Of a stretch of 64,000 nt of DNA, positions 2,601 to 59,868 are shown piece after piece; the first letter of the stretch is position 1, and each line of letters opens with the position of its first letter. The stretch is from an uncultured Verrucomicrobiota bacterium. GTDB taxonomy: Bacteria > Verrucomicrobiota > Kiritimatiellia > JAAZAB01. Location of the stretch: the NCBI GenBank assembly GCA_964630555.1, contig CAZVVD010000002.1, positions 1,334-65,333 on the forward strand, in the 5' to 3' direction. The translations under genes were made by a program, and so were the position numbers. The notes below the pieces were generated by a model, which had not been told where the DNA came from, did not search any database, and worked only from the letters and a program-made list of their open reading frames with translations.

Positions 2601-4910
2601 CTATTCCTCTTCCCCGCTGAGCCGGGCCAGGACATTGAAATCTTCCAGCGTGGTCAAGTCGCCGGTGACCTCGGTGCCGGCCGCCAGCTGTTTGAGCAGG
2701 CGGCGCATGATCTTGCCGGAGCGGGTTTTGGGAAGGGCCTGGGCGAAGCGGATTTCATCCGGCTTGGCGACCGCGCCCAGTTCGTTGCCGACCCGCTTGC
2801 GGAGCTCGTCCCGCAGGGCGGGGCTGGCCTGCTGTCCCGTCCGGAGGGTCACGAAGACCACCACGGCAAAGCCCTTGGTGTCGTCGGGCCGCCCCACCGC
2901 CGCGGCTTCGGCGACCGCCGGGTGGCCGACCAGGGCGCTTTCCACTTCCGCCGTCCCGATGCGGTGCCCGGAGACGTTGAGCACATCGTCGATGCGCCCG
3001 ACGATCCAGAAGTAGCCGTCCGCGTCGCGGCGGGCGCCGTCGCCGGTCAGGTAGTTGCCGGGCGCATCTTTCCAGTAGGTCCAGGCAAACCGGTCGGGAT
3101 CGCCCCAGACTCCCCGCAGCATGCTGGGCCAGGGCCGGCGGATGACGAGCTTGCCGCCCGCGTTGTCGGGCACGGGCTGGCCGCGCTCGTCGATGACGTC
3201 CGGGAGCACGCCCGGCAGGGGCAATCCGGCGGACCCCGCTTTGGCCGGCACGGCGCCGGGAAAGGTGGAGATCATGATACTGCCGGTTTCCGTTTGCCAC
3301 CAGGTGTCCACGATCGGGCAGCGGCCGCCGCCGATATGCTCGTGGTACCAGAGCCAGGCCTGGGGGTTGATCGGCTCGCCCACCGTGCCCAGCAGGCGCA
3401 GGGACCCAAGGTCGTGTTTTTTGGGCCAGGCGTCGCCCCACTGCATGAAGGCCCGGATGGCGGTGGGCGCGGTGTAGAACAGGGTGATCTTCCGCCGGGC
3501 GATGATGTCCCAGAAGCGGTCCGGGCCGGGGAAATTCGGGGCGCCCTCGTAGATGAACACGGTGGCGCCGTTGGCCAGGGGGCCGTAGACGACGTAGCTA
3601 TGGCCCGTGATCCAGCCGATATCCGCCGTGCACCAGAAAATATCGCTGTCGCGGAGGTCGAAGATCAGCTGGTGGGTCAGCTTGGCGCCCAGCAGGTAGC
3701 CCGCGGTGCTGTGGAAAATGCCCTTGGGCTTGCCGGTGGATCCGCTGGTGTAGAGAATGAACAGGACGTCCTCGCTCTCCATGGACTCGGGCGGGCAGAT
3801 CGCCTCCGCCTGGGCCAGCTCCTCGTGCCACCAGAGGTCGCGTCCGGCGCGCATCGGCGTGTCGCCGCCGGCGCGGCGGAAGACGATGACCTTATCCACG
3901 CTGGCGCCCAGCCGCTGGCCGTCGGCGTTCTTGAGCTCCAGGGCTTCGTCCACGCTGGCCTTCAGCGGGACGCGGCTCCCGCGGCGGAACCCGCAGTCGG
4001 CCGTGATGACCAGCCTGGCCGCACAGTCGCGGATGCGTTCGGCGACGGCCTGGGCGCTGAACCCGCCGAAGACCACCGAGTGGATCGCCCCGATGCGGGC
4101 GCAGGCCAGCATGGCGATCACGGCCTCCGGGATCATCGGCAGGTAGATGATCGCGCGCTCGCCCCGGGCGAGGCCGTGGCGCTTCAGCACGTTGGCGAAC
4201 CGGCAGACCTCGGCGTGCAGCTGCCGGTAGGTGAGCGTCCGTTCCTCGCCGGGTCGGTCGGGTGCGTAGGGTTCGCCTTCCCAGATCAGGGCGAGCCGGT
4301 CGGCCGCGGGGGTGTCCAGGTGCCGGTCCAGGCAGTTGGCGCAGGCGTTGAGCCGCCCGCCGCGGAACCATTTGGCGTCCGGCAGGTTCCACTCGCAGAC
4401 CGATTCCCAGGGCTTGAGCCAGGCCAGGTGCTGCCGCGCCTGGTCGGCCCAGAAAGACTCGGGGTCGTTCAGTGACGCGCGGTAAAGCTCCCGGTAGGCA
4501 TCCGGCGAGTTGATGCGGGCGGCGCCGGCGAAAGCGGGCGGGACGGGGAAGACCCGGCCGTCCCGGGCATGGCACTCGATGTTGGCGCCGGCATCCGCCA
4601 GTAATTGCTCCAATCCCGAGGTGCGGATGAGCTCCTTGACGAAGGGATTGGGCTTGACCATGCGGAAGTGGCCGGGCCGGACCTTTTTGGCCGTGGTCAG
4701 CACGATGCGGATGAAGACCGAGGAGAGGAAGTCAACCTTTTCGAGGTCGAAGACGATCGTGAACGTGTCCGGCAGCTTGCCTCCGTCGGCGCCGGCGCGC
4801 AGCTTGGCCTCCAGGTCCTTGGCGAGGGCCGCGCAAGAGGCGCTGTTCAGGTCGCCGCGGAAGCGGCAGGTCATCTGCCGGGCCGCTGTGTCGAGGGTGC
4901 AATCGAGCAT
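2601..4910 (-). CDS. acs: acetyl-CoA synthetase with N-terminal STAS domain fusion
   Basis: 769-aa continuous ORF. Residues from approximately 130 onward are canonical Acs ([12 protein letters not shown]-loop, [32 protein letters not shown]). The N-terminal approximately 125 aa are a STAS domain ([13 protein letters not shown]...) paralogous to ORF 2130-2459. There is no in-frame ATG between the two domains. Confidence 0.85.
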
Positions 4911-9481: not shown

Positions 9482-9501
9482 ATTTCAACAATTGTTGAAA
9501 T
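9482..9501. promoter_or_regulatory. perfect 20-bp palindrome ATTTCAACAATTGTTGAAAT inside a 650-bp non-coding gap
   Basis: Read directly. Flanked by further TTTCA/TGAAA half-sites (9475-9508). No credible protein ORF in 9380-10026. Confidence 0.35.
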
Positions 9502-20066: not shown

Positions 20067-23000
20067 TTGGCTGGTCGTAAAATGAAAATGACCTCGGTAA
20101 AAATATGGTGTTGCGTGGCGGCGGTTGCCTTGGCCTTAAACGCGTTCACGACCGCTTTGGCGGGGTATGTATGGACCAACCTTAACTACGGTACAAGCGC
20201 GGACGTTGAGGCTCTCGCTCATGACGGGGCTACTCTATACGCAGGCGGTGAGTTCATGCACATCGACATACGGCCGTTGAATTATATAGCGAGATGGAAC
20301 GGCACGAGTTGGAACGGTCTCGGCACCGGTATGGACGGCTACGTATGGGCTTTGGTCCATGACGGAACTAGTTTGTACGCGGGTGGGAATTTCACGACAG
20401 CGGGCGGGGTGGCAGCGAATCGAGTGGCGAAGTGGAATGGCTTGAGCTGGACCAGCCTTGGCAGCGGCTTTGGCAACAGAGTCTTTGCCTTGGCACATAA
20501 CGGGACGAACCTGTACGCAGGCGGTTTATTCACGAACTCCGGCGGTATGGCGGCGAATTATGTGGCCGTGTGGAATGGCGCGAGTTGGACAAACCTTGGC
20601 ATTGGCATGAATGACCGAGTGCGTGCCTTAGCCCATGATGGGACGAACCTGTACGCGGGTGGGAATTTCACGACAGCAGGCGGGGTGGCGGCGAATTATA
20701 TCGCCATGTGGAATGGCGCGAGTTGGACCAATCTCGGAAGTGGTATGGATGGTCACGTTCTCGCTTTGGTCCATGACGGCAGGAGCCTGTATGCAGGAGG
20801 GGAGTTCAGGAACGCCGGCGGGGTAACTGTGAACTATGTGGCGAAGTGGAACGGACGGATTTGGACCATGTTTGGCAGCGGTATGGACGGTTCCGTACGC
20901 GCCTTGGACTACGACGGGACGAACCTGTACGCGGGTGGGAATTTCACGACAGCAGGCGGGGTGGCGGCGAATTATATCGCCATGTGGAATGGCGCGAGTT
21001 GGACCAATCTCGATAGCGGTATGAGCACCAACGTGTGCACCTTGACACATAACGGACTGAGTCTGTATGCGGGTGGTGAGTTCATGTTCGCCGGCGGGGT
21101 AAGGGTGTACTATGTGGCGATGAGATGTTTTACGAGTATAGCAGTATTGGGCACGAACATGGCGGAGATCGGCAATGGCGAAGCGGTGAGTGCGGCCAAA
21201 GGGACGGATTTCGGTTCCCTCGCATGGGGTGGCATTTTAAGCCATACTTTAACGATTACCAACGGTGGTGGCACCACCTTGGTAATCAGTGGAATCACGA
21301 CGAACGGGGCTGGTGCGTCGGCCTTCCGGATTGCAGGAATGCCGTCTTCCATTCCTCCCGGTCATGCCTCCAATTTTTCCGTTCAGTTCGCTCCTGCCAA
21401 CCCGGGGTTTTACACGGCAGCAGTGTTAATTGCCAATAGTTCTTTACCCTCACCGTATATCGTCAATCTGGCCGGCACGTACGCAAAGCAAAACCAGACG
21501 ATCACCAATTTTCCGAATCCGGGAAGCCAGTTAATAACCAATACAGTGCAGTTGTATGCCCAGGCCAGTTCAGGCTTGCCGATAAGCTTTATGAATTCAC
21601 CCGGCTGTCCGGTAATCTGGCAGAACGCGACCACGATCACGTTCTGCGCAACCGGCGTGGTCAACATCGTGGCTTCGCAGGCGGGTGACGCCAACTGGAA
21701 TGCCGCGCCAAATGTGACGCAGACGTTCAACGTGGTTAGTGGTTGGATCGAGGTGGATCTTGCGCTCAATGGGTATGTCTATGGGGTGACCAATACCGTG
21801 ATCCAGGGATATAACGCTACTCCACAGGTTTTCGTGGTCTATAATAGCGCCGGGCCCAATGCTATGTTTTACCAAGTCTCTGATGACATGCCATGGCTTA
21901 TGGAGAGTCCGGCGAGTGGATCAACCACAGGCGAAGTTGATACGATTGTCATGTCATATAGCGTAGCGGCGCTGAATGCAGGGACATATCACGCGGTGAT
22001 CACGGTGGTGGGCACTAACGAACTGGAGACGCTGACGACGACCAATACAGTGTCGGTGACGCTAGTGGTGCGGCCGTTGGCAAAGCTGGGGTGCGACGGA
22101 GTCGATCTTCAGTCGCAGTCCCGCCAGGGCCATTCGCCGGCGTCCGCAGTTTTCACGGTGTGGAATGCGAGCGAACCGGGAACCATCGCCTGGACGGCAG
22201 AGGCCGACTCCGACTGGCTGGCCGCCACGCCCGCCTCGGGAACGAGCGCGGGCGAACCGGACACGGTGACGCTGAATTTCGACACCTCCGCCCTGGGCAT
22301 GGGCCGCTACCGCGGGCACCTCACGCTGCGCGGGACCGACGCCCTGACCGGGACCGAGGCGCTGCAGTCGCCGAAAGCGCTGACGGTGGACTTGGCTGTC
22401 CTGGGGACGAAAGACCTGGACTTCCTGGGCGACGGCAACGTTTCGGACCTGGCGGTGTACCAGGAAAGCACGGGCAACTGGTACATCCAGCGGCTGTCCG
22501 ACCGGGCGCGCCTGGTGGAATGGATGGGCGGGCCCGGCTACCTGCCGGCTCCCGGCGATTATGACGGCGACGGGCGCGCGGACCTGGGGATCTACCGTCC
22601 GGAAAACGGGGCGGGCTATGCCCGGCGGATTGGCAGCGACTGGATCACCACCCTGGGCGCCTGGGGCAGCCTGGGGTGCCGGCCGGTGCCCGGCGATTAC
22701 GACGGCGATGGTCGCACCGATTTCATGATCTACCAGGAGTCGTCCGGCACGTGGTATCTCAGGCGTTCCTCGGACGAGGCGGTCGTATCCGGGCAATTCG
22801 GCGGCCCGGGTTTTTCTGCCCAGGCCGGCGATTTTGACGGGGACGGCGCTTCGGACGCCGCCATTTACGACGAGGCGAGCGGCCGCTGGTACATCATCAC
22901 CGTGGGCGGCGTGGTGATCGCCTGGGACCTGCTCTGGGGCGGCGTAGAATACACCCCGGTGACGGGCGACTTCGACGGCGACCGGCGGACTGACGTGGGG

Positions 23001-23243
23001 GCCTACCGCGAGGACACCGGGCTGTGGTTCATGGCGGACGCCGCCGGCAACACGATCGGGTGGTGGCTGTCGTGGGGCGCGCCCGGCCACCAGCCGGTGG
23101 CCAAGGATTACGACGGCGACGGTGTCGCGGACATGGCGGTTTACGAGACCATGACGGGGCGCTGGTATATCCGGACGGTTGCCGGCGCGGTCCTGGAATA
23201 CGGCCTGGTCTGGGGCGGGCCGGGTTTCACGCCCGCGCCGTAG
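20067..23243 (+). CDS. large secreted repeat protein: signal peptide, approximately 8 tandem approximately 46-aa beta-propeller-type repeats (WNGxSWxxLGxGxxxxVxALxxDGxxLYAGGxFTxAGG), Ig-like middle, five C-terminal FG-GAP-like repeats (GDYDGDGxxD...WY)
   Basis: Single continuous 1058-aa ORF. Repeats are visible at both protein and DNA level. GC is approximately 50% for 20067-22080 and rises to the approximately 65-68% genome background for the rest. Confidence 0.75.
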   Translation: MAGRKMKMTSVKIWCCVAAVALALNAFTTALAGYVWTNLNYGTSADVEALAHDGATLYAGGEFMHIDIRPLNYIARWNGTSWNGLGTGMDGYVWALVHDGTSLYAGGNFTTAGGVAANRVAKWNGLSWTSLGSGFGNRVFALAHNGTNLYAGGLFTNSGGMAANYVAVWNGASWTNLGIGMNDRVRALAHDGTNLYAGGNFTTAGGVAANYIAMWNGASWTNLGSGMDGHVLALVHDGRSLYAGGEFRNAGGVTVNYVAKWNGRIWTMFGSGMDGSVRALDYDGTNLYAGGNFTTAGGVAANYIAMWNGASWTNLDSGMSTNVCTLTHNGLSLYAGGEFMFAGGVRVYYVAMRCFTSIAVLGTNMAEIGNGEAVSAAKGTDFGSLAWGGILSHTLTITNGGGTTLVISGITTNGAGASAFRIAGMPSSIPPGHASNFSVQFAPANPGFYTAAVLIANSSLPSPYIVNLAGTYAKQNQTITNFPNPGSQLITNTVQLYAQASSGLPISFMNSPGCPVIWQNATTITFCATGVVNIVASQAGDANWNAAPNVTQTFNVVSGWIEVDLALNGYVYGVTNTVIQGYNATPQVFVVYNSAGPNAMFYQVSDDMPWLMESPASGSTTGEVDTIVMSYSVAALNAGTYHAVITVVGTNELETLTTTNTVSVTLVVRPLAKLGCDGVDLQSQSRQGHSPASAVFTVWNASEPGTIAWTAEADSDWLAATPASGTSAGEPDTVTLNFDTSALGMGRYRGHLTLRGTDALTGTEALQSPKALTVDLAVLGTKDLDFLGDGNVSDLAVYQESTGNWYIQRLSDRARLVEWMGGPGYLPAPGDYDGDGRADLGIYRPENGAGYARRIGSDWITTLGAWGSLGCRPVPGDYDGDGRTDFMIYQESSGTWYLRRSSDEAVVSGQFGGPGFSAQAGDFDGDGASDAAIYDEASGRWYIITVGGVVIAWDLLWGGVEYTPVTGDFDGDRRTDVGAYREDTGLWFMADAAGNTIGWWLSWGAPGHQPVAKDYDGDGVADMAVYETMTGRWYIRTVAGAVLEYGLVWGGPGFTPAP

Positions 23244-24370: not shown

Positions 24371-24385
24371 CGTTGCCGCAGCAGT

Positions 24386-24414
24386 GGAAGCGGCGCCCTC
24401 GCCGCTTTTCTGTT
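24386..24414. terminator. hairpin GGAAGCGGCG-CCCT-CGCCGCTT followed by TTTCTGTTT
   Basis: Read directly, 14 nt after the ADH stop. Exact reverse complement of the hairpin at 941-964. Confidence 0.5.
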
Positions 24415-29420: not shown

Positions 29421-31688
29421 ATGCGATTACGGATACGAGTCGCCGGTTTGGTGGTGGCGGTTGGGTGCCTGGCCTGGATGGGGCTCAGTCCGTCCGCCGG
29501 GGCCGATCCGGTGGATGCCGCCGGGGCCAGGGCCGTGGTGCGGGGCTGGCTGGCCTCCAATGCGCGGCCGCTGGGCGCCGCGCTCGGCGGCGAAATCGAA
29601 GCCGTGGCGACCACCGCCGATGACACCGGCGCGGCAGCCTGGCATGTGGTATCCCTCCGGGGGGGTGGGTTCGTCATTGTCCCGGCCGACGATTGGCTGG
29701 AGCCTATCCTGGCGTTCGCGTCCCGGGGCGGTTTTGCGAACAATCCCCGCTATCCCTTGTCCGCCCTGGTCGCCGCCGACGTCAACGGCCGGCTGGCCGC
29801 CGTGCGGCAGGTTCGGAAGGGGGGCGCCTCCGTTCGGCTGCCGGACGGCTACCGCGCCGGGCAGGCGCGCTGGCGCGCACTCCGGAACAATGCGGTTTTG
29901 GCCGGGGACGGGGTTGGACTGCTCCCGTCCGTTTCCGACGAGCGCGTGCCGCCGCTGATCCAAAGCGCGTGGGATCAGGAAGAGGTGGGCTTTGCCTATA
30001 ACTACTGCTTCAATTACTACACGCCCAACCACTATCCTTGCGGTTGCGGGCCGACCGCGGTCGCCCAGCTCATGCGCTACCACCGGCACCCAGCCGCCGG
30101 GGTCGGTCCGAGATCGTTCGAAGTCGTGGTCGAGAACGATCCAAATGCCTACTGGACCCTGACTCTCAAGGGCGGGGACGGCGCCGGGGGGCCCTACCGC
30201 TGGGACCAGATGCCCCTCGATCCCGCCGGCGACACCCCGGAGGCCCAGCGGCAGGCCATCGGGGCCCTGTGCCACGACGTCGGCGCGGCCGCGCAGGCGC
30301 GTTACGGACCGATGGGCACGAGCTCGGATTTCTTCACCCTGGGCCGCGTGCTGAAATCGGTTTTTTACTACAGCCAGGCCATTGCCGGCTTCAACCAGTA
30401 CGAATCCATCGGCCTGGCCGCCCTGTATGGCATGCTGAATGCCAGCCTGGACGCGGGCCTGCCGGCCCTGTTGGCCATTGACGGGGATGGCGGAGGGCAC
30501 GCCGTGGCCTGCGACGGCTACGGGTACGATGGCGGGACGCTTTATCACCATCTTAACATGGGTTGGGGCGCGTACTACACGGCCGACAATGCCTGGTACG
30601 CCCTGCCGCAGATTGATTCCGTCGGGATCGCCTTCGATGCCGTGCACGCCTGTCTTTATAATGTGTACCCGAGCGGATCCGGCGAGATCATCAGCGGGCG
30701 GATCACCGACAGCGGCGGCCGGCCGGTCGCCGGGGCCACGGTGACGGCCCAGCAGTCCGGCGCCGGCGCCCGCGCCGTGACCTCCGATAGCCGCGGCATT
30801 TACGCGTTCTCGCGACTGCCGTCGTCAACCCAGTTCTCGCTGCGGGCGGAGAAGGCCGGGCTCGCCTTTTCCGACCGCACGGTCTCCACGGGCCGCTCCG
30901 AGGATTACGCTAATACCAGCGGCAACCAATGGGGCATCGATTTCGTGGGGAGCGGAGGGGTCGGGCCCGATCCGGACCCGGCCAACCAGGCGGCGGCGTC
31001 GGATTATGACGGGGACCGGCTGGCCGATCCGGCGGTCTATCTGCCTGCCGCCGGCAGGCTGTATGTCTGGCTCTCCTCGCAGAACTATGTGCTCTCCGGG
31101 CCTCATGCCTTTGCCGTGGCGGGCTACTCAAACGCCGTGCCCGCGGATTACGACGGGGACGGCAAGGCTGACCCGGCGGTTTGCCGGGCCGCCACGGGCG
31201 ACTGGCAGGTCTGGCTCTCGGCCTCCGGTTATGCCGGCGCGGGCGGGTCGTTCTATCGGTCGGGGTTCAGTCGGCCGGCGGCGGCGGATTATGACGGGGA
31301 CGGCCGGGCCGACCCGGCCGCGTTCAATCCGTCGTCCGGGGAGTGGACCGTGTGGCTGTCGTCGGCCGGTTATGCCGGCAGCGGGCCGCACGCGTTTGGC
31401 CATGCGGACTACTCCATGCCGGTGGCGGCGGATTACGACGGGGACCAGCTGGCCGACCCGGCCGTTTTCAGCGCCGGGCCGGGAAGTTGGTATGTCTGGC
31501 TGTCTTCCGCCGGATATGGCGGCTCAGGGCCGCACGCCCTGGGGCTGGCCGGCTATTCGGTCCCGGCGCCGGCGGATTACGACGGCGACCGGGTGGCCGA
31601 CCCCGGCGTGTTCAGCGCCGCCGCCGGCAGCTGGTGCGTCTGGCTGTCCGCCAGCGGCTACGCCCGCGTCGGGCCGATGACGTTTTAG
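29421..31688 (+). CDS. secreted C10 family cysteine peptidase (streptopain/SpeB-like) with carboxypeptidase-regulatory-like domain and five C-terminal FG-GAP-like repeats
   Basis: Signal peptide; catalytic Cys context YPCGCGPTAVAQLMRYH resembles the SpeB active site; propeptide-like N-domain; repeats ADYDGDGxADPAVxxxxxGxWxVWLS x5. Confidence 0.8.
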   Translation: MRLRIRVAGLVVAVGCLAWMGLSPSAGADPVDAAGARAVVRGWLASNARPLGAALGGEIEAVATTADDTGAAAWHVVSLRGGGFVIVPADDWLEPILAFASRGGFANNPRYPLSALVAADVNGRLAAVRQVRKGGASVRLPDGYRAGQARWRALRNNAVLAGDGVGLLPSVSDERVPPLIQSAWDQEEVGFAYNYCFNYYTPNHYPCGCGPTAVAQLMRYHRHPAAGVGPRSFEVVVENDPNAYWTLTLKGGDGAGGPYRWDQMPLDPAGDTPEAQRQAIGALCHDVGAAAQARYGPMGTSSDFFTLGRVLKSVFYYSQAIAGFNQYESIGLAALYGMLNASLDAGLPALLAIDGDGGGHAVACDGYGYDGGTLYHHLNMGWGAYYTADNAWYALPQIDSVGIAFDAVHACLYNVYPSGSGEIISGRITDSGGRPVAGATVTAQQSGAGARAVTSDSRGIYAFSRLPSSTQFSLRAEKAGLAFSDRTVSTGRSEDYANTSGNQWGIDFVGSGGVGPDPDPANQAAASDYDGDRLADPAVYLPAAGRLYVWLSSQNYVLSGPHAFAVAGYSNAVPADYDGDGKADPAVCRAATGDWQVWLSASGYAGAGGSFYRSGFSRPAAADYDGDGRADPAAFNPSSGEWTVWLSSAGYAGSGPHAFGHADYSMPVAADYDGDQLADPAVFSAGPGSWYVWLSSAGYGGSGPHALGLAGYSVPAPADYDGDRVADPGVFSAAAGSWCVWLSASGYARVGPMTF

Positions 31689-38946: not shown

Positions 38947-39150
38947 CCGCCGAAAGGGGTAGAAGCGGCGCCCTCATCGTTTCCCCATCATGTCAAAAAA
39001 ATGGCAAGCGACGGGGGCGTCGCTTCCACGAGCACCGCGGTTCGTGCGCCAGTGTTTTCCTTAGCGCTTTGGCGAAGGTTGGGTGCCACCGTGGATCGAA
39101 TTCGAGCCGCATGGCTTGCAGGCAAAGCCCGTGCCAAGCGGAACCTGGCG

Positions 39151-45500: not shown

Positions 45501-48500
45501 ATGAACACGCGGAAAGGTTGGGTGTTGACGGCGATCCTGGCGGGCGCCGGCGCCCTGGGCCTGCGAGCGGCCGAACCGGCGCCGGCGTTTCCGCCGCTAC
45601 CGCAGATCGCGATCCTGCAGGCGGACAAGGCCCCGGTGGTGGATGGCGTGCTGGACGACGCCTGCTGGGCTCAGGCCGAGGAATCCTCGGTGCTCACCGA
45701 TGAGTACTCGTTCCCGGTCAAGCTGCAGACCACCTTCCAGGTCGCCCAGAAGGACGCCACGCTCTACCTGGCGATCCGGGGGCGCTACGACGAGAAGCCG
45801 GCCCGGCAGACCAACAAGGGCGCCACCCACAACGGGAACATGTGGGACGAGGAGGTCGTCGAGATTTTCCTGGATCCCGACAACGAGGATACGCCGGGCT
45901 ACTACCAGTTGATCGTCACGCCCTTCGACGTCACCGCGGAGTTTTTCAACCGCGCGGCCCGCGATACCGAGAAGCGCTGGACGCCGGACTACGAGGTCAA
46001 GAGCCGGTGGACCACCAACGCCTGGACCATTGAGTACGGGATCCCCCTGGCGGCCTTCGACCAGACCGCGACCCTGTACGAGAACTTCGGGCTCAACGTG
46101 CACCGGGTGGACGCGGTCTACTGGGGGGTGGCGACCTGGGCGCCGCTGCACAGCGAGAACCTGCACTTCCCGCACCGCTTCGGCGAGGCGCGCGGCCTTC
46201 GGGGCGTGGGGGTGAAAACCAACGCGGCCGGCCGGCTGCGGATGCCGGAACTGCGGGTCAACGACCGGGTGATCCGGGCCAAGGCGAATCCCTCGCTCGT
46301 GCCCGAAAAGCCGCCGGCGCTGGTGTCCGGACCGGAGGTCAAGGCCTCGGGCGGCTCGGCCGAGATCGGCTTCGAGGTCAACACGCCCACGGACGTGGCG
46401 GTGTGGCTTGAGGACGCGCGCGGCGAGCGGGTGCGGCACCTGGCGGCGGGCCTGCTGGGGGCGAATCCGCCGGCGCCGCTGCAGAAGGACACGCTCCGGC
46501 AGGTCCTGGCCTGGGATTACAAGGACGATGTCGGCAAGAAAGTCCCGGCCGGATCTTACCAGGTCAAGGTGGGTGTGGGGTCCCAGGCCAGGCTGGACAA
46601 GGAGCTCGACCGCAGCGAAGCCCCGCGCGCGATTCACGGGGTGGCGGTGGATCCGCAGGGGGCGGTGTTCACGATCAGCGGCGCCTGGGACGAATGGACC
46701 GAAATCCGCAAGTACGACCGCGCCGGCAAGTTCGTCTCGATGCTGATGCCGCCGCCGGCGGACGTGCCCGCCGAGAAGCTCAAAGGGTTGAACATCATTG
46801 ACTACGGGCCCGACGGCCAGGTGCGGTTCGGCAGCCACCGGTTCGGGGCGACGCTGCCCCACCTCGACCTGCCGATGCCCCAGACCCTGCTGGTCAACGG
46901 CAAGGGACAGCTGATCTTTTTCGGCGGCGAATACCCGGGCGGGCCGGCGCGGCTCTACAAGATCAACGGCGACGGCAGCCTGCCGGCCGATTTCATCGGC
47001 CCGCGGATCGTGGACTGGAACTGGATGGCCTGGTGGGAGCTGCACGCCAAGCGGTTTCACTTCGCGCTCGATCCCCGCGACGGAGAAACCGTCTACGTGA
47101 GCGGGCTGAAATCCATCCATCGCGGCGACACGGCGGTGGCCGAAACCAATCCCGAGCTGGTTGCCGGCAAGCGCGAGACCTTCCACAACGCCGTCTTCCG
47201 CGTCCGCTGGGCGCCGGACGCGCCCCTCGAGGTTTTCGCGGGCAAACCCAACACCCACGGCACGGCCGGCTCGGACAAGCCGGGCGAGTTTTTCGATCCG
47301 CAGGGCATCGCCTTCGACAACGACGGCCACCTGTGGGTCTGCGACCGGCGCAACAACCGCATCCAGGTGCTGAATCGCGACGGCAAGTTCCTGCGCCAGT
47401 TTTCGCACACCGGGCCCTACGAGGCGCGCATCAGCCGCAAAACCGGGGAAGCCTACGTCCTGGGGATCGTGCCCACGAATTTTCTGTACAAGGGCAAGAA
47501 GATCCTCAGCCACATGTCGGCCGTCGAGCTGACGAAATATTCGGCGGACGCGCAGCCGAAAGTCCTGGCCCGGACCCGGCTCCTCGGAATGGAGCGCAAG
47601 GAACTGTTCGGCGTGACCGGGATGGACTGGGGGTTCTGGAGCTACTGGTGGACCCTGGCCCTGGACGACTCGGGCGCCCAGCCCGCGGTCTGGGTGGTCT
47701 GGGGGGCCGGCAATGTCAATCCCGGCCACGGCTCCGGCAGCGCCGGCGCCAAATCGCTGGCGCGGGTGGCGGACCTGGGGGACAAGTTCGGGGAACCCGA
47801 AGTCCTGATTGGCAAGACCCCGCCGCGTTTCCATTCCCGCATCACGGTGGGATGGGAGTCGGATGTCATTCCTTTGCACACCGGCTACCTCGACGCCAAC
47901 GCCGGGCGGGCGGTTACGGAGGGCTTGCCCGCCCGCGCCGGCGGCGAGAAGGTTGCCGCGCGGGACGGGCGCTGGGTGGTGCGCAACGCCAACGAATATC
48001 TGTCGGTCTACCCGGAAGCCTGGGGGACAAACCCGGCGGCGCCCTCGCTCTGCTCGTGGGCGCTGACCCCCCCCGCCTTTGCGGAACACCAGCCCGGGTT
48101 GGCCGTGGCGCCCGGCGGCGACCTGTATGTGGCGCGTTATTATAACTACCGGTATGCCGAGGGCGCGCCCGGCGGCATCGAGGGTCCGGATCATCATGTC
48201 GCCATCGACCGCTACAGCCTGGACGGCAAGCTGCTGGCCCAGCGCGTGGTGTACGAGCTGTCGCCGGCCGCGTGTTCGCCGGCGGTGGACCTCCGGGGCA
48301 ACATCTACGTCGGCGATAATTTCGGACGCCGGATCGGCGGCGAGTTTTTTTACGAGCGGGATATCGCCGCCAACCTGCCGGCCTGGATGCCGGATTACCG
48401 CATCGGCGCGGCGGAATGGGACCGGCTGCGGGCGGGCGACAAGCTCGAGGCCGGCTACCAGAAGTTCGTGATCAATCCCCTCATCCAGCGGGTGGGCGCG

Positions 48501-49106
48501 GTCTACAAGTTCGGCCCGCGCGGCGGCGGCATCCTCTGGCGCGCGGCCCAGGCCCGGCACACGCCCGCCTATGTCGCGCACCAACCCCAGACCAACAAGG
48601 ATGGCAGGGTGATGTTTGCGGATTGGCACTATCCCTGCACCCCCGCCCCCAAGCGGCCGGCGACGCATTGGAGCTCGGCCGTGACCGCCAAGAACTCGCA
48701 GAGCGAGCACGGCATGTATCCCTGCTGGACCGAGGGGGTCGAGTGGGAATTCCTGGGCGCCAGCCCGGTCCCGGGCCGCTTCAGCAAGACCCGCGAGTCG
48801 AGCCTGGCCGGCGGACTGCGGTTCTGCGTGGACGATTTCGGACGCCTCTACCTGCCGGCCGCGCACCGGAACACGGTCCGCCTGCTCGACACCGCCGGCA
48901 ACGAACTGCTGCGCATCGGGAGCTACGGCAACCTGGATTCCGGGCCCGGCGGGCGGCTAAAAACGCCGGAAGTTCCCCTGTGGTATCCCTGCGCCGCGGC
49001 GCTGTCGAAGCGCTATCTGTATATCGGCGAGCGCTACCTCCCGCGCCTGCTGCGCATCCGGATGGGGTATTGCCAGGAAAAGACCGCGGACCTGGCGGTT
49101 CCCTAG
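45501..49106 (+). CDS. large secreted protein with N-terminal CBM9/DOMON-like carbohydrate-binding domain and NHL-repeat beta-propeller
   Basis: Signal peptide; CBM9-like block (ATLYLAIRG...NMWDEEVVEIFLDPDNE); NHL repeat (GEFFDPQGIAFDNDGHLWVCDRRNNRIQVL). Confidence 0.75.
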   Translation: MNTRKGWVLTAILAGAGALGLRAAEPAPAFPPLPQIAILQADKAPVVDGVLDDACWAQAEESSVLTDEYSFPVKLQTTFQVAQKDATLYLAIRGRYDEKPARQTNKGATHNGNMWDEEVVEIFLDPDNEDTPGYYQLIVTPFDVTAEFFNRAARDTEKRWTPDYEVKSRWTTNAWTIEYGIPLAAFDQTATLYENFGLNVHRVDAVYWGVATWAPLHSENLHFPHRFGEARGLRGVGVKTNAAGRLRMPELRVNDRVIRAKANPSLVPEKPPALVSGPEVKASGGSAEIGFEVNTPTDVAVWLEDARGERVRHLAAGLLGANPPAPLQKDTLRQVLAWDYKDDVGKKVPAGSYQVKVGVGSQARLDKELDRSEAPRAIHGVAVDPQGAVFTISGAWDEWTEIRKYDRAGKFVSMLMPPPADVPAEKLKGLNIIDYGPDGQVRFGSHRFGATLPHLDLPMPQTLLVNGKGQLIFFGGEYPGGPARLYKINGDGSLPADFIGPRIVDWNWMAWWELHAKRFHFALDPRDGETVYVSGLKSIHRGDTAVAETNPELVAGKRETFHNAVFRVRWAPDAPLEVFAGKPNTHGTAGSDKPGEFFDPQGIAFDNDGHLWVCDRRNNRIQVLNRDGKFLRQFSHTGPYEARISRKTGEAYVLGIVPTNFLYKGKKILSHMSAVELTKYSADAQPKVLARTRLLGMERKELFGVTGMDWGFWSYWWTLALDDSGAQPAVWVVWGAGNVNPGHGSGSAGAKSLARVADLGDKFGEPEVLIGKTPPRFHSRITVGWESDVIPLHTGYLDANAGRAVTEGLPARAGGEKVAARDGRWVVRNANEYLSVYPEAWGTNPAAPSLCSWALTPPAFAEHQPGLAVAPGGDLYVARYYNYRYAEGAPGGIEGPDHHVAIDRYSLDGKLLAQRVVYELSPAACSPAVDLRGNIYVGDNFGRRIGGEFFYERDIAANLPAWMPDYRIGAAEWDRLRAGDKLEAGYQKFVINPLIQRVGAVYKFGPRGGGILWRAAQARHTPAYVAHQPQTNKDGRVMFADWHYPCTPAPKRPATHWSSAVTAKNSQSEHGMYPCWTEGVEWEFLGASPVPGRFSKTRESSLAGGLRFCVDDFGRLYLPAAHRNTVRLLDTAGNELLRIGSYGNLDSGPGGRLKTPEVPLWYPCAAALSKRYLYIGERYLPRLLRIRMGYCQEKTADLAVP

Positions 49107-49160
49107 CCTGAATCATTCGCACGCAGCGAATTATTCACCGCTCCGCGGCCGCCACGTGAG

Positions 49161-49237
49161 TCACGTCTCTGGCGCAATGTGTTGCGCCAGAGTGACCTAT
49201 TCAACAACCTGAAAAGTTGATGAATAGGTCAGGCTAG
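49161..49237. repeat. 77-bp double-hairpin element, copy 1
   Basis: TCACGTCTCTGGCGCAATGTGTTGCGCCAGAGTGACCTATTCAACAACCTGAAAAGTTGATGAATAGGTCAGGCTAG. Near-identical to 57238-57313. Hairpin 1 is an 11-bp perfect stem CTCTGGCGCAA/TTGCGCCAGAG; hairpin 2 is CCTATTCAACAAC/GTTGATGAATAGG. Confidence 0.55.
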
Positions 49238-49243
49238 CCGCCG

Positions 49244-49269
49244 GTCGGGCTTTGGCCCTCCCGTCTGCC
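49244..49269 (+). promoter_or_regulatory. conserved upstream motif GTCGGGCTTTGGCCCTCCCGTCTGCC (second copy at 50510-50535)
   Basis: 24/26 identity between two sites, each shortly upstream of a + strand gene (hisC; DUF1080-like). Confidence 0.35.
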
Positions 49270-50509: not shown

Positions 50510-50535
50510 GTCGGGCTTTGGGCCTCCGGTCTGCC
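50510..50535 (+). promoter_or_regulatory. second copy of GTCGGGCTTTGG(G)CCTCC(G)GTCTGCC motif
   Basis: See 49244-49269; ends 21 nt before ATG 50557. Confidence 0.35.
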
Positions 50536-50556: not shown

Positions 50557-51621
50557 ATGAAGCGATTCGCGTCTTGCGTCCTGGCTCTCATCGTAGCGGC
50601 GCTGGCCGGAGCGGCCTGGGCGGAACAGCCGCTTTCTCTTGAGCTGACCCTGAAAGACGGCTCGCGCATCATCGGGGTTCCCGTTATTGAATCGGTGCCG
50701 GTGGAGACATCCTACGCTAAGATGGACTTGTCCCTGCGGCAGATCGTGGCCCTGGAGATGGGCGCGGATCAGGAAACGGTCACCTTCGACCTACGGAACG
50801 GAGACAGGCTGAAGGGGGTTGTCGCCCTTGAGGCGCTGTCCCTTGAGACGGCGTTCGGGAAGGTGTCGATCAACCTCGGGCACCTGCAGCGCCTGCGCGT
50901 CAGGTCGGCGGGCCGGGCGCTGCCGGGTGGCGAAGGGGCCTTGGCCTTCGGCGGTCTGCACTGGATGGCTTGGCGAACGGCGTTCGAGGTGCAGGGGGAC
51001 AAGTTGGTGGCACTGCCCAAGGCGCGGCCGGGGTTCAACTACGGCCATGACGGCAACGGGCGCTCGTCCTGGCTCGTGAGCAACGTTGGCAATCCGGATT
51101 GGAAGGATTACACCGTGGAGTTCGAGTATTGCATGAGCGGGGTGGATCCGGCGTTCAACCCATGCGGGCTGCCCCTGGACTATAGATCCGGCCAGATCAT
51201 GTTCCATGTCGCCGACGCGAAGGAGAGCTGGAACGAGCGCGGCGCCAGCATGTACACCCTCAGCCTGGGTTGCGACGGCTTCGGTTCTGCCCCCAGGTTC
51301 ATGCGGTGGAGACTCGCTGGTTACTACAACGCGTATTGCCGCGCGCCGGCTGGCTGTAGCGCCTGGCAGAGCGACGACGAGCGGCGGCTGGCGGAGGGCC
51401 AGGGCCTGGAGCTGGATCCTAAGACGGGAAACAAGTTTCGGATTGACGTGTGCGGGACGCGCATCCAGATCTGGGTGGATGGAAGCCAGATCGCGGACGT
51501 GCGGGACGAAAAAATGGCCGAGAGCATCGGGGGTCAGACGCTGGACCACGGCGGCATCGGTTTCAATTGGCAGGCCGAATGCATGGGGTGGATCCGCAAC
51601 CTTTCCGCGAAGCAGTTATAA
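50557..51621 (+). CDS. secreted protein with C-terminal DUF1080 (LamG-like / 3-keto-disaccharide hydrolase-like) domain
   Basis: RBS AGGTGGAGG; signal peptide; C-terminal FRIDVCGTRIQIWVDGSQIADV...GGIGFNWQAECMGWIRNLS pattern typical of DUF1080. Confidence 0.6.
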   Translation: MKRFASCVLALIVAALAGAAWAEQPLSLELTLKDGSRIIGVPVIESVPVETSYAKMDLSLRQIVALEMGADQETVTFDLRNGDRLKGVVALEALSLETAFGKVSINLGHLQRLRVRSAGRALPGGEGALAFGGLHWMAWRTAFEVQGDKLVALPKARPGFNYGHDGNGRSSWLVSNVGNPDWKDYTVEFEYCMSGVDPAFNPCGLPLDYRSGQIMFHVADAKESWNERGASMYTLSLGCDGFGSAPRFMRWRLAGYYNAYCRAPAGCSAWQSDDERRLAEGQGLELDPKTGNKFRIDVCGTRIQIWVDGSQIADVRDEKMAESIGGQTLDHGGIGFNWQAECMGWIRNLSAKQL

Positions 51622-53680: not shown

Positions 53681-54781
53681 ATGAACACGGACACGGGCAA
53701 CTCAGCAGAATTGATTCGGGCCCTCACCCTGCCGGCCCCAATCCGCGCCCATCCGCGCCCATCCGCGGCGCTTCTGCCGGCCTGCCTCTGGCTTCTCTGC
53801 GCGGGCCTGGCCGCCGGACAGGGCAGCAACAGCGCGCCGGCGCCGGTGAGCCGGTCCGTGACAACGTTGTACCCGGTCCTGGTCAGCAACCAATGGGGCT
53901 ACATAAATCGCGCCGGCAAGGTGGTCATCCCCCCGCAGTTCGCCACCGGCTTCGGGTTTTCCGAGGGACTGAGCCCGACGCGCAAGGGGGGCACGGTGGG
54001 CTATATCGACACCAACGGCGCGTTCGTCATCAAGCCGCAGTTCGTGGCCGGCCTGCAGTTCCAGGAGGGGCTGGCCGCGGTGCGGGTCGGCCGGAAATGG
54101 GGCTTCATCGACCGGCAGGGACGAATGGCGATCCCCCTGCAGTTCGACCGACCCGGCAATTTTTCGGAGGGCTTGGCGCCGGTGGGCGTGGATTTCAAGT
54201 GGGGCTATGTGGATACGAACGGCGGATTCGTGGTGCCGCCCCGCCTCGAGGAGGTCCGGGAGTTTGCCGACGGCCTGGCGCCGGCCCGCGAGGCCGGACA
54301 GTGGGGCTACCTGGATCGCCAGGGGGGGTGGGTGTTGCCGCCGCAATACGAGGATGGCCGGCCGTTTGCGGAAGGGCTGGCGGCCGTAAAACGCGCCGGC
54401 AAATACGGCTTTATCGATCGAACCGGGAACATCGTTATCCCGCCGAAATTCGACCTGGTGTACGAGTTCAGCGAGGGCCTGGCGCCGGCCCGGGTGGAAG
54501 ACGGCGGCAAGTGGGGCTATATCGACCGCGCCGGCCGGTGGGTCATCCAGCCGCAGTTCGACTGGGCCTTCGGCTTCAGCGAAGGCCGGGCCGCGGTGGA
54601 CATCGGACTGTTCTTCGGCTATATTGACCGCCAGGGGAAATATGTCACCAAGGTCGAGTGGGATTGCGCCGAGCCGTTCGACGGCGGGCTCGGGCTGGTG
54701 GGGTATTTTGAGCGGCGGGTTTGGCCCGCCTACGGCTATGTGGATTGCGACGGGAAGTATGTCTGGCCGCTGTCGCGCTGA
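53681..54781 (+). CDS. WG-repeat (KWG) containing secreted protein
   Basis: Approximately 8 tandem repeats of WGYIDxxGxxVIPPQFDxAxxFSEGLAxV; signal peptide after an unusual N-terminal extension; start uncertain. Confidence 0.7.
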   Translation: MNTDTGNSAELIRALTLPAPIRAHPRPSAALLPACLWLLCAGLAAGQGSNSAPAPVSRSVTTLYPVLVSNQWGYINRAGKVVIPPQFATGFGFSEGLSPTRKGGTVGYIDTNGAFVIKPQFVAGLQFQEGLAAVRVGRKWGFIDRQGRMAIPLQFDRPGNFSEGLAPVGVDFKWGYVDTNGGFVVPPRLEEVREFADGLAPAREAGQWGYLDRQGGWVLPPQYEDGRPFAEGLAAVKRAGKYGFIDRTGNIVIPPKFDLVYEFSEGLAPARVEDGGKWGYIDRAGRWVIQPQFDWAFGFSEGRAAVDIGLFFGYIDRQGKYVTKVEWDCAEPFDGGLGLVGYFERRVWPAYGYVDCDGKYVWPLSR

Positions 54782-56592: not shown

Positions 56593-56729
56593 CGGGACTG
56601 CGCCGGGCGGGAGGGGATGGCGGAATATTCCTTTCCGGTTCCGGCCGACTTGACGCCGGAGGGGGAGGGGCGTAGGCTTGCGGTGCAGGTCGGATCTCAG
56701 CGGGGGCGCTGGAACGGAAGGTGGCGGGG

Positions 56730-57191
56730 ATGAAACGGAATCCAATCCTGTGGATCGGGATCGCTGCCGGTATGCTGGCGTGCGTCCTGCCCAGCCGCGG
56801 CGGAGAGCCGGCGGCGTCGCCGTCGCCGGCCAAGGATGCGGCGGCCTTCCAGGCCGCGGACACCAACGCCGATGGCAAGGTCACCTGCGCCGAAATGACC
56901 GCGGCCGCCTGCCGGGAGGCTTTTGCCCGGATCGACCGAAACGGCGACAAGGCCGTCACCCCCGAGGAGTGGGCCGCGGCAGACAAGCGGCCGGGCGCGC
57001 GCGAGCGCTTCGACGCCATCGACCGGAACAAGGACGCCCAGATCACGTTCCTCGAGTTTTCGGAGACCGCCCGCAAGGCGGCCGATCACGACAGGGCTTT
57101 CACAGTGCTGGATAAGAACGCGGACGGAACCCTGTCCCGGGACGAGTATTCGGGGCATCCGCACTTCAAGCTGTTTTCGATTCAGTTCTAA
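56730..57191 (+). CDS. secreted EF-hand calcium-binding protein
   Basis: Signal peptide; four EF-hand loops (DTNADGKVT, DRNGDKAVT, DRNKDAQIT, DKNADGTLS). Confidence 0.7.
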   Translation: MKRNPILWIGIAAGMLACVLPSRGGEPAASPSPAKDAAAFQAADTNADGKVTCAEMTAAACREAFARIDRNGDKAVTPEEWAAADKRPGARERFDAIDRNKDAQITFLEFSETARKAADHDRAFTVLDKNADGTLSRDEYSGHPHFKLFSIQF

Positions 57192-57237
57192 CGGGGCGGC
57201 CCGCCGCGGAGTTTGGGCATCGCCGCAGCGATGCCCA

Positions 57238-57313
57238 TCACGTCTCTGGCGCAATGTGTTGCGCCAGAGTGACCTATTAACAACTTGAAAAGTTGATGAA
57301 TAGGTCAGGCTAG
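57238..57313. repeat. 76-bp double-hairpin element, copy 2
   Basis: Same sequence as 49161-49237 with 2 differences (one C deletion, one C>T); preceded by a terminator-like hairpin GGGCATCGC-C-GCAGCGATGCCC. Confidence 0.55.
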
Positions 57314-59671: not shown

Positions 59672-59735
59672 TTAGGGTTCAGGGTTCGGGGTTCAGACAG
59701 GAGACCCCCGCGACCTTGTGTCGCGGGTGCAAGAG

Positions 59736-59768
59736 ATTGGCTTGAAAGCACGCTTTTCAAGCCAATCT
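59736..59768. terminator. hairpin GATTGGCTTGAAA-GCACGCT-TTTCAAGCCAATC followed by TTTCG
   Basis: 13-bp perfect stem read directly. Flanked by two further 8-bp-stem hairpins (59707-59728, 59775-59795) after the hisA stop. Confidence 0.45.
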
Positions 59769-59868
59769 TTCGCCCCTGCCGCACAAGGCGGCAGGAGGCG
59801 TAAGTCAATTTATTTATGATCGATATTTTCTGCCTGAACCCTAAACACTATTTGACAGGCTTCCTACC

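Follow-up and report, generated by a model that had tools for sequence, protein, structure and literature searches.

The 64-kb window analysed here (64,000 nt of contig CAZVVD010000002.1, from an uncultured Verrucomicrobiota bacterium of the class Kiritimatiellia) carries a short, strongly folding repeat in two of its intergenic spacers. Copy 1 lies between a gene for a 1201-aa NHL/CBM9 protein (45501-49106) and hisC, and copy 2 lies between an EF-hand gene (56721-57191) and a convergent Usp gene, placements that agree with the preliminary description of this DNA. We conclude with considerable confidence that both copies are non-coding miniature inverted-repeat transposable elements (MITEs) with the ends of the IS1380 family of insertion sequences (ISs) and a 4-bp target-site duplication (TSD). 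The repeat was initially noticed as a 77-mer at 49161-49237, which matches the window exactly, with a second copy at 57238-57313 that differs from it at two positions only: one base is deleted (TTCAACAA becoming TT-AACAA) and one C is replaced by T, both changes sitting in the 5' arm or loop region of the second of the two hairpins recognised in it. In 100 shuffles of the window neither sub-pattern ever matched twice, and neither half of the element was found elsewhere in the window with up to 3 mismatches allowed.

The boundaries of the element are not those first assigned to it. The interval originally described comprises the 3' 60% of copy 1 together with its target duplication, and the last four bases of that interval in either copy, CTAG, are the TSD and stand outside the element. 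Upstream, the true extent reaches 49107 in copy 1 and approximately 57192 in copy 2. Sequence similarity ends abruptly at both edges of the segment that the copies have in common. The stop codon of the NHL/CBM9 gene (TAG, 49104-49106) falls inside the left CTAG of copy 1, and the TAA stop of the EF-hand gene is formed by bases 57189-57191, within the tetranucleotide at the left junction of copy 2. Coordinates of all parts are collected in Table 1.

Table 1. Parts of the two MITE copies and their target sites (TIR, terminal inverted repeat; TSD, target-site duplication; Ha to Hf, hairpins in 5' to 3' order; positions are those of the window).
Feature	Position	Strand	Remarks
Left TSD of copy 1, CTAG	49103..49106	+	Same tetranucleotide at 49234-49237
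MITE copy 1	49107..49233	+	127 bp, both ends complete; from alignments and folds
Left TIR of copy 1, CCTGAATCATTCGCA	49107..49121	+	Matches IS1380-type left ends and the reverse complement of the right end
Hairpin Ha, copy 1	49109-49137		5' arm formed by the left TIR
Hairpin Hb, copy 1 (CCGC tcc GCGG)	49138..49148	+	From the fold; homologous hairpin elsewhere has other paired bases
Hairpin He, copy 1, CTCTGGCGCAA-tgtg-TTGCGCCAGAG	49167..49192	+	11-bp perfect stem; hairpin 1 of the preliminary description
Hairpin Hf, copy 1	49193..49231	+	Internal inverted copy of the TIR pairs with the right TIR; hairpin 2 of the preliminary description
Right TIR of copy 1, GTTGATGAATAGGTCAGG	49216..49233	+	Terminus recurs at metagenome loci, including carriers of an IS1380 transposase
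Right TSD of copy 1, CTAG	49234..49237	+	
CTAA at left junction of copy 2	57188..57191	+	Orthologous site in relatives is CTAG
MITE copy 2	57192..57309	+	About 118 bp; from alignments
Linker remnant AACGGGG, retained in copy 2			
Hairpin Hd, retained in copy 2	57215-57236		
Hairpin He, retained in copy 2	57244-57269		
Hairpin Hf, retained in copy 2	57271-57306		
Right TIR, retained in copy 2	57292-57309		
Right TSD of copy 2, CTAG	57310..57313	+	Single CTAG here in relatives

From left to right, copy 1 is made up of the left TIR, Ha, Hb, a junction of CACGT repeats, He, Hf and the right TIR. Its 5' 60 nt align with the 5' end of the 223-bp copy at locus L013, relative to which an internal stretch of 96 bp with Hc and Hd is missing; these hairpins were apparently lost through deletion between two CACGT repeats. 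Copy 2 is without the left TIR, Ha, Hb and Hc, and no match to the left TIR was found upstream of it. Having lost its left end, this copy should be immobile. The two copies are 97% identical over their common part and approximately 87% identical to copies elsewhere, and two variants are private to them (the He loop TGTG, and an A replacing T in TTCATCAAC); a recent common origin of the pair is the likely reading of these alignments. Neither copy contains an open reading frame (ORF), and searches of the window with TIR patterns (up to 4 mismatches) and with a full-length query found only these two. The GC content of copy 1 is 53.5% against 67.2% for the window, and elements overall range from 48 to 58%.

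Homologues were sought by scanning one genome per species with the He hairpin, its loop left free, as query. The scan returned 13 loci, 5 of which are chance palindromes and 8 true homologues. Of the contigs that carry the latter, four belong to one Kiritimatiellia metagenome-assembled genome (MAG), three to two Victivallales MAGs and one to a Verrucomicrobiota MAG. Their conserved sequence reaches about 130 nt further upstream than the repeat as first described, and the homologous elements measure 141-223 bp (127-223 bp for the whole family). A full-length copy, such as the 196-bp one at positions 831-1026 of L009, consists of six hairpins, Ha to Hf, arranged in series and joined by short, conserved linkers with CACGT-like repeats. 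Two copies are present in the 64-kb window, and five on four contigs in the one Kiritimatiellia MAG. These homologues bear directly on the idea that the repeat is a chance or local duplication of an intergenic segment, which the preliminary description had kept for the case of only two copies genome-wide, untranscribed and not conserved in relatives. That idea would account for the presence of just two copies in the window, co-oriented and separated by 8 kb. However, at least four other MAGs, of three classes, and many metagenomes contain homologous elements, the sequences bordering the two copies are unrelated beyond the element itself, and the internal deletions of the copies differ, which leaves a mere duplication with next to no probability.

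Two further observations concern L009. On the minus strand at 3734-3844 this locus has a 5' half-copy (Ha to Hc and the start of Hd) that ends abruptly and is 99% identical to the full copy 2.8 kb away, so truncated copies are common in the hairpin family. Within the full copy (982-1026), a perfect left end (CCTGACCTATTCATCAAC) serves as the 5' arm of Hf, and the last 45 bp are therefore a nested, complete 'mini-MITE' of two abutting termini.

Elements of the family start with 5' CCTG[G/A]AT[T/A/C]ATTC and finish with GAATAG[G/A]TCAGG 3', so the two ends are inverted repeats. Copy 1 begins CCTGAATCATTC and finishes GAATAGGTCAGG, with a direct CTAG on either side; its left end is thus to be set against CCTGACCTATTC, the reverse complement of the right end, and in full-length relatives the corresponding pair is CCTGGATTATTC and CCTGACCTATTC. 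The flanking 4-mers are identical in all 10 complete copies of the hairpin family: CTAG/CTAG in copy 1, L069 and L081, CTAA/CTAA in L001, L008, L009, L013, L046 and L061, and TTCA/TTCA in L005.

The right end is far more widespread than the hairpins. Its terminal 19-mer was found in 87 metagenome stretches, nearly always followed by CTAG, CTAA, TTAG or TTAA, and the sequence upstream of it falls into about 30 unrelated clusters, of which the window's hairpin family is one (plus the single variant L027). Both ends could be located for 47 non-redundant elements of 111-1619 bp, whose flanking 4-mers are mostly CTAG or CTAA. In 35 of the 47 the two flanks are identical, compared with 12.8 expected by permutation, and none of 20000 permutations reached 35. 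Pairs such as CTAA/CTAA, ATAG/ATAG and CTAT/CTAT are direct and not inverted repeats, and a 2-bp TA duplication bordered by a longer TIR is therefore ruled out.

Two other DDE transposase families use CTAG-like targets and might have given rise to such a MITE. Elements of the IS5 group insert into YTAR with a 4-bp duplication, as seen here, and have GG/GA ends; IS630/Tc1-mariner elements, for which CTAG is the classical target, insert in CTAG and duplicate TA. The window element ends in CC...GG as IS1380 and piggyBac do, not in GG/GA, and the CTAA, ATAG, CTAT and TTCA pairs misfit the IS630 scheme. Moreover, the sole coding elements found with these termini encode IS1380-family transposases, and descent from IS5 or IS630/Tc1-mariner is accordingly very unlikely.

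Seven such coding elements, each of about 1.6 kb (L050, L014, L033, L025, L051, L031 and L109), share the ends of the MITE. They are 1603-1620 bp long and have one long ORF for a 455-aa transposase, which in L050 matches the Pfam domain DDE_Tnp_1_4 at 6e-150 and the NCBIfam IS1380 family transposase at 4e-114. Homologues of this protein that are 70-77% identical, and labelled IS1380 family transposase, come from Kiritimatiellae and Verrucomicrobia MAGs, and L109 is itself a 1620-bp copy with the same ends on a Kiritimatiellae MAG contig. The left end shared by L050 and L109, CCTGAATTATTCATCAAG, is nearly that of the hairpin MITE in L069 and that of copy 1 in the window. A Komagataeibacter plasmid carries an annotated element of the IS1380 family with ends of the CC...GG form (CCCATCTTATTCACGG), flanked by CTAA on both sides as a duplication, and the termini of the window element have the form CCTG...CAGG, in keeping with the 5'-CC..GG-3' termini and 4-bp TSDs that IS1380 and piggyBac have in common (PMC10045372). 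The DDE_Tnp_1_4/NF033539 feature is present in the partner elements only; the window element has no transposase ORF and is therefore an IS1380 derivative and not an IS.

Exact look-ups of the window's EF-hand, NHL and Usp proteins, and of a HisC entry that is 100% identical (P0001), gave no record. Contigs of relatives were reached through homologues of HisC and Usp, and the comparison was made junction by junction. Where copy 2 stands in the window, the element is absent from three relatives at five loci (L101, L110/L111 and L112/L113), in which Usp is 77-83% identical. There the EF-hand gene ends in GTTCAGTTC-TAG, including an uninterrupted CTAG, and the 3' end of Usp follows 0-27 nt further on. 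The order in the window is GTTCAGTTC-TAA, 118 bp of element, CTAG, 25 nt and the Usp stop, as expected of an element that inserted at that CTAG and later lost its left part. The TAA stop of the window gene may then combine bases of the target with bases of the element. As for copy 1, relatives have hisD directly upstream of hisC, and the window has the NHL gene in that place and no hisD anywhere. With the NHL gene and copy 1 replacing hisD, the MITE lies at a breakpoint of synteny (49107).

In L112 (4865-4891) and L113 (1175-1201, minus strand) the 27-nt spacer between the EF-hand and Usp genes starts with CCTGGATT right after the CTAG target. The spacer therefore opens with the same 8 nt as the left end of the MITE, and it forms a small hairpin; this may be either a coincidence or the relic of an independent insertion. 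A decayed second insertion at these loci was considered and set aside as unsafe, since the matching CCAGG falls within the Usp coding region. A type I-E CRISPR-Cas locus (Cas3, Cse1) adjoins the same spacer.

Both window copies sit at a stop codon. YTAR sites number only 62 in the 64-kb window (67% GC), some 25% of which serve as the stop of a long ORF. Over all loci, 13 of 49 elements adjoin the stop of an ORF of 80 codons or more, with inconsistent orientation. Target preference together with selection against intragenic insertion is enough to explain both stop-codon positions.

Our confidence in an IS1380-derived MITE comes from several sides at once: the terminal inverted repeats, the duplicated target, the small size without an ORF, autonomous partners with the same ends, the empty sites of copy 2 and the distribution of the family across genomes. 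As to mechanism, a DDE transposase of the IS1380 family, whose gene would lie in another part of the genome or have since been lost, would act in trans and bind the termini of about 18 nt (5'-CCTGAnnnATTC...GAATAGRTCAGG-3'). The element would then be placed into a YTAR tetranucleotide, most often CTAG or CTAA, whose four bases would be duplicated. YTAR includes a stop codon and is rare in this 67%-GC genome, so that tolerated insertions would often lie exactly at gene stops, where the duplicated target would regenerate the stop codon of the gene; both window copies are placed in this way. The anatomy, the duplicated targets, the termini shared with transposase-bearing elements, the empty sites and the distribution are direct observations. 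That the element is moved in trans, how its transposition proceeds chemically and whether nearby genes are affected are inferences.

Several points weigh against this interpretation. No empty site for copy 1 was found among the relatives, because the junction of the NHL gene with hisC is not syntenic in them and offers no comparator. A query with the transposase protein found no transposase gene in the 64-kb window. The flanks are non-identical in 12 of the 47 complete elements, and 4 of the 5 full-length IS copies have non-identical flanks or behave in the same manner (e.g. TTAG vs CTAG). Finally, compensatory changes are seen in four of the internal hairpins, and bacteria of different classes have kept the linkers between them, although a purely selfish DDE transposon has no obvious need of co-varying hairpins or conserved linkers. 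With regard to the flanks, we observed that L014, L031, L051 and L109 typically have a left flank of TTAG and a right flank of CTAG or CTAA, and that about 80% of the MITEs have identical flanks; the mismatch in the IS copies could stem from recombination between IS copies or from a different cut at the left end.

The hairpins themselves proved partly other than first described. The first of the two, He, does have an 11-bp perfect stem in both copies. The second, Hf, has in copy 1 a stem of 15 bp, not 13 bp, that includes a single A/A mismatch, and its pairing is, as had been noted, not preserved, the deletion in copy 2 opening an internal loop. Nor is Hf a stem-loop in its own right: its conserved 3' arm is the right TIR, and its 5' arm is an internal inverted copy of the same TIR, which gathers mismatches. 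Ha, at the left end, is built in the same way from a TIR and its inverted copy.

Each strand of either window copy folds as RNA into two adjacent hairpins with z-scores of -6.3 to -8.5. In Hd both sides have changed in 6 of 9 pairs with 92.6% of cells paired, and its covariation score is 0.184, as against 0.089 in shuffles and at most 0.066 for slid partners. Ha, Hb and Hc stay paired although their sequences change from genome to genome. All 12 aligned copies have the same He stem, around loops that vary, a count biased by the 8 copies that were found through He; L027, which was found independently of He, has an He variant with compensated changes. Such strong folds and maintained pairing, along with the fact that the window copies are co-oriented with the gene ending at their left edge, are what one would expect if the hairpin array were a functional structured RNA, either a small RNA or a 3' untranslated element stabilising or terminating the upstream mRNA, an effect of which REP (repetitive extragenic palindromic), ERIC and Correia elements are capable. 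Its mobility would then be a mere means of spread, or its copies would have been domesticated.

Much of the remaining evidence speaks against a functional RNA. A scan of the window, of 600 nt around copy 1, of eight loci and of a full-length copy against Rfam 15 gave no match at the gathering score, and only weak, miRNA-like noise appeared at E<=1-10. No sigma-70-like promoter and no terminator of a stem plus T-run were found at the element. Among non-Watson-Crick stem positions there are 8 G-T against 11 A-C, and no single transcribed strand is therefore indicated. Copies that are truncated or have internal deletions are common, the interiors of other MITE families that share these termini are wholly different, and the adjacency to ORF stops reported above is confined to a minority of elements without consistent orientation. 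Palindromes can, in addition, stay perfect through template-switch (quasi-palindrome) repair. On balance we regard a role as functional RNA as unlikely. The preliminary description had suggested a miniature REP- or MITE-like repeat, or else a small RNA gene, and this latter possibility is not borne out.

The same covariation admits a related alternative, in which the family is a mobile palindrome cassette under selection, a PVC-group (Planctomycetes-Verrucomicrobia-Chlamydiae) counterpart of REP and the bacterial interspersed mosaic elements (BIMEs) that is delivered by a piggyBac-like transposase. Its palindromes could be binding sites for a host protein or for the transposase, or an RNA 3'-end or insulator module at stop codons. 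The compensatory change in Ha to Hd, the near-invariant He stem and the conservation of the CACGT linkers between Kiritimatiellia, Victivallales (Lentisphaerota) and Verrucomicrobiota can be cited for it. The palindromes may owe their upkeep to selection acting on the element, to a function at the protein or RNA level, or to template-switch repair of quasi-palindromes, and we consider a selected cassette a doubtful proposition.

True REP/BIME-type palindromes, moved by a RAYT acting on single-stranded hairpins, would likewise be intergenic, modular arrays, and the subsets of hairpins that vary between copies are reminiscent of them. The 15-18-nt TIRs and the 4-bp target duplication are, however, found in no REP, and the termini are those of elements with an IS1380-family DDE transposase. 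The REP head is of the GTAG type, and no conserved head of this kind is present in the aligned copies. A REP is thus extremely improbable, and it is the MITE part of the original suggestion that stands, on the strength of the TIRs, the TSD, the IS1380 termini and the empty sites of copy 2.

Two further candidates were considered and rejected. The sharp 3' boundary and multi-hairpin shape called to mind a TnpB/IscB omega-RNA or an IS200/IS605 end, but no TnpB or IscB gene lies upstream in any locus, and the elements have TIRs, TSDs and DDE partners. An integron attC site is a single long imperfect hairpin with a GTTRRRY core; the element is not such a hairpin, and its GTTGATG misfits that core.

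Other repeats occur in the window. A 26-nt motif, GTCGGGCTTTGGSCCTCCSGTCTGCC, is found twice, at 49244-49269 (10 nt past MITE copy 1 and about 90 nt ahead of hisC) and at 50510-50535 (22 nt ahead of the ATG of the next gene at 50557), and might act as a promoter or leader element common to both places. At 59707-59795, a near-palindrome of 89 nt finishes in a hairpin, CCTGCCGCACAAGGCGGCAGG, that is present again at 1723-1743 on the minus strand and, in near-identical form, on the minus strand of the Victivallales contig L003, where it adjoins the end of another IS1380-type MITE; PVC genomes may have in this hairpin a second dispersed repeat in common. The GC-rich hairpin GGAAGCGGCG(A/C)GGGCGCCGCTTCC, followed by ACTCCT, occurs in both orientations at 941-970, 24380-24407 and 38955-38984 and may be a terminator or another small repeat family. 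The in-frame coding repeats at 20220-21118, 22524-23145, 30989-31667 and 53987-54560 (138-nt tandem units, 138-144-nt FG-GAP/VCBS-like DYDGDG repeats and WG-containing repeats) are ordinary repeat proteins. Finally, a perfect 20-bp palindrome, ATTTCAACAATTGTTGAAAT, lies in an intergenic region at 9482-9501 and has an operator-like look. It had been thought to share a core with the element, a chance 8-mer by our analysis: TTCAACAA occurs 3 times in the window against 0.5 expected, and the link is unsupported because this 8-mer is a copy-specific variant of the family consensus TTCATCAAC.

Taken as MITEs, the two elements are members of a new family of ordinary selfish DNA present in several PVC-group bacteria. 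Our literature searches found no paper connecting MITEs with IS1380, and none on transposable elements or repeats in Kiritimatiellaeota. Two AT-richer, strongly folding intergenic segments are hereby explained as transposon insertions with fixed boundaries, and for annotation the stop codons of two genes fall within duplicated target sites. More broadly, the data disclose a widespread IS1380-type group in PVC bacteria and environmental metagenomes that combines an identical 19-nt end with some 30 different interiors. Its elements insert at YTAR sites, of which a sizeable share coincides with stop codons in GC-rich genomes, and they are useful as markers of recent genome change. They also counsel caution in RNA-motif searches, given that co-varying hairpins can be parts of transposons. 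No new kind of biology is revealed by the element; a mildly unusual trait is its bead-like series of co-varying palindromes.

In several respects the window elements resemble the MITEs known from bacteria (Correia/NEMIS of Neisseria, ERIC/IRU, RUP, Nezha and the Tn3-derived TIMEs), being short, non-coding, multi-copy and intergenic, often placed beside gene ends, and provided with TIRs, a TSD and strong single-stranded folding. They depart from them in being tied to the IS1380 family, and in having up to six separate local hairpins, four of them with compensatory substitutions, in place of one long end-to-end hairpin. With proteobacterial REP/BIME sequences they have in common a mosaic of short palindromic units, an extragenic position and a possible effect on mRNA 3' ends; REPs, however, have neither TIR nor TSD and depend on RAYT tyrosine transposases, whereas the window element has both and DDE-type partners.

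The IS1380 family, whose members include IS1380, ISEcp1 and ISPme1, consists of bacterial relatives of eukaryotic piggyBac, the excision of which is precise. Like the MITEs derived from piggyBac in eukaryotes, the window elements use a TA-centred tetranucleotide target (TTAA in piggyBac and YTAR here, with TTAA among the flanks), have a 4-bp duplication and CC..GG termini, and in some copies contain sub-terminal repeats; they differ from these in being prokaryotic and in a target relaxed to CTAG, CTAA, TTAG and TTAA. Compared with the IS copies sampled here, the window element is only 127 bp long, non-coding and unrelated in its interior, and each of its ends is palindromic (a TIR and its inverted copy), whereas the IS copies are without palindromic ends. 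Its affiliation with the IS1380 family is nonetheless visible in the TTATTCAC core that it has in common with the ends of the Komagataeibacter element, which is likewise flanked by a duplicated CTAA, in the occurrence of its exact right end on 1.6-kb elements that encode a transposase, and in the 5'-CC...GG-3' termini and 4-bp duplication characteristic of that family (PMC10045372).

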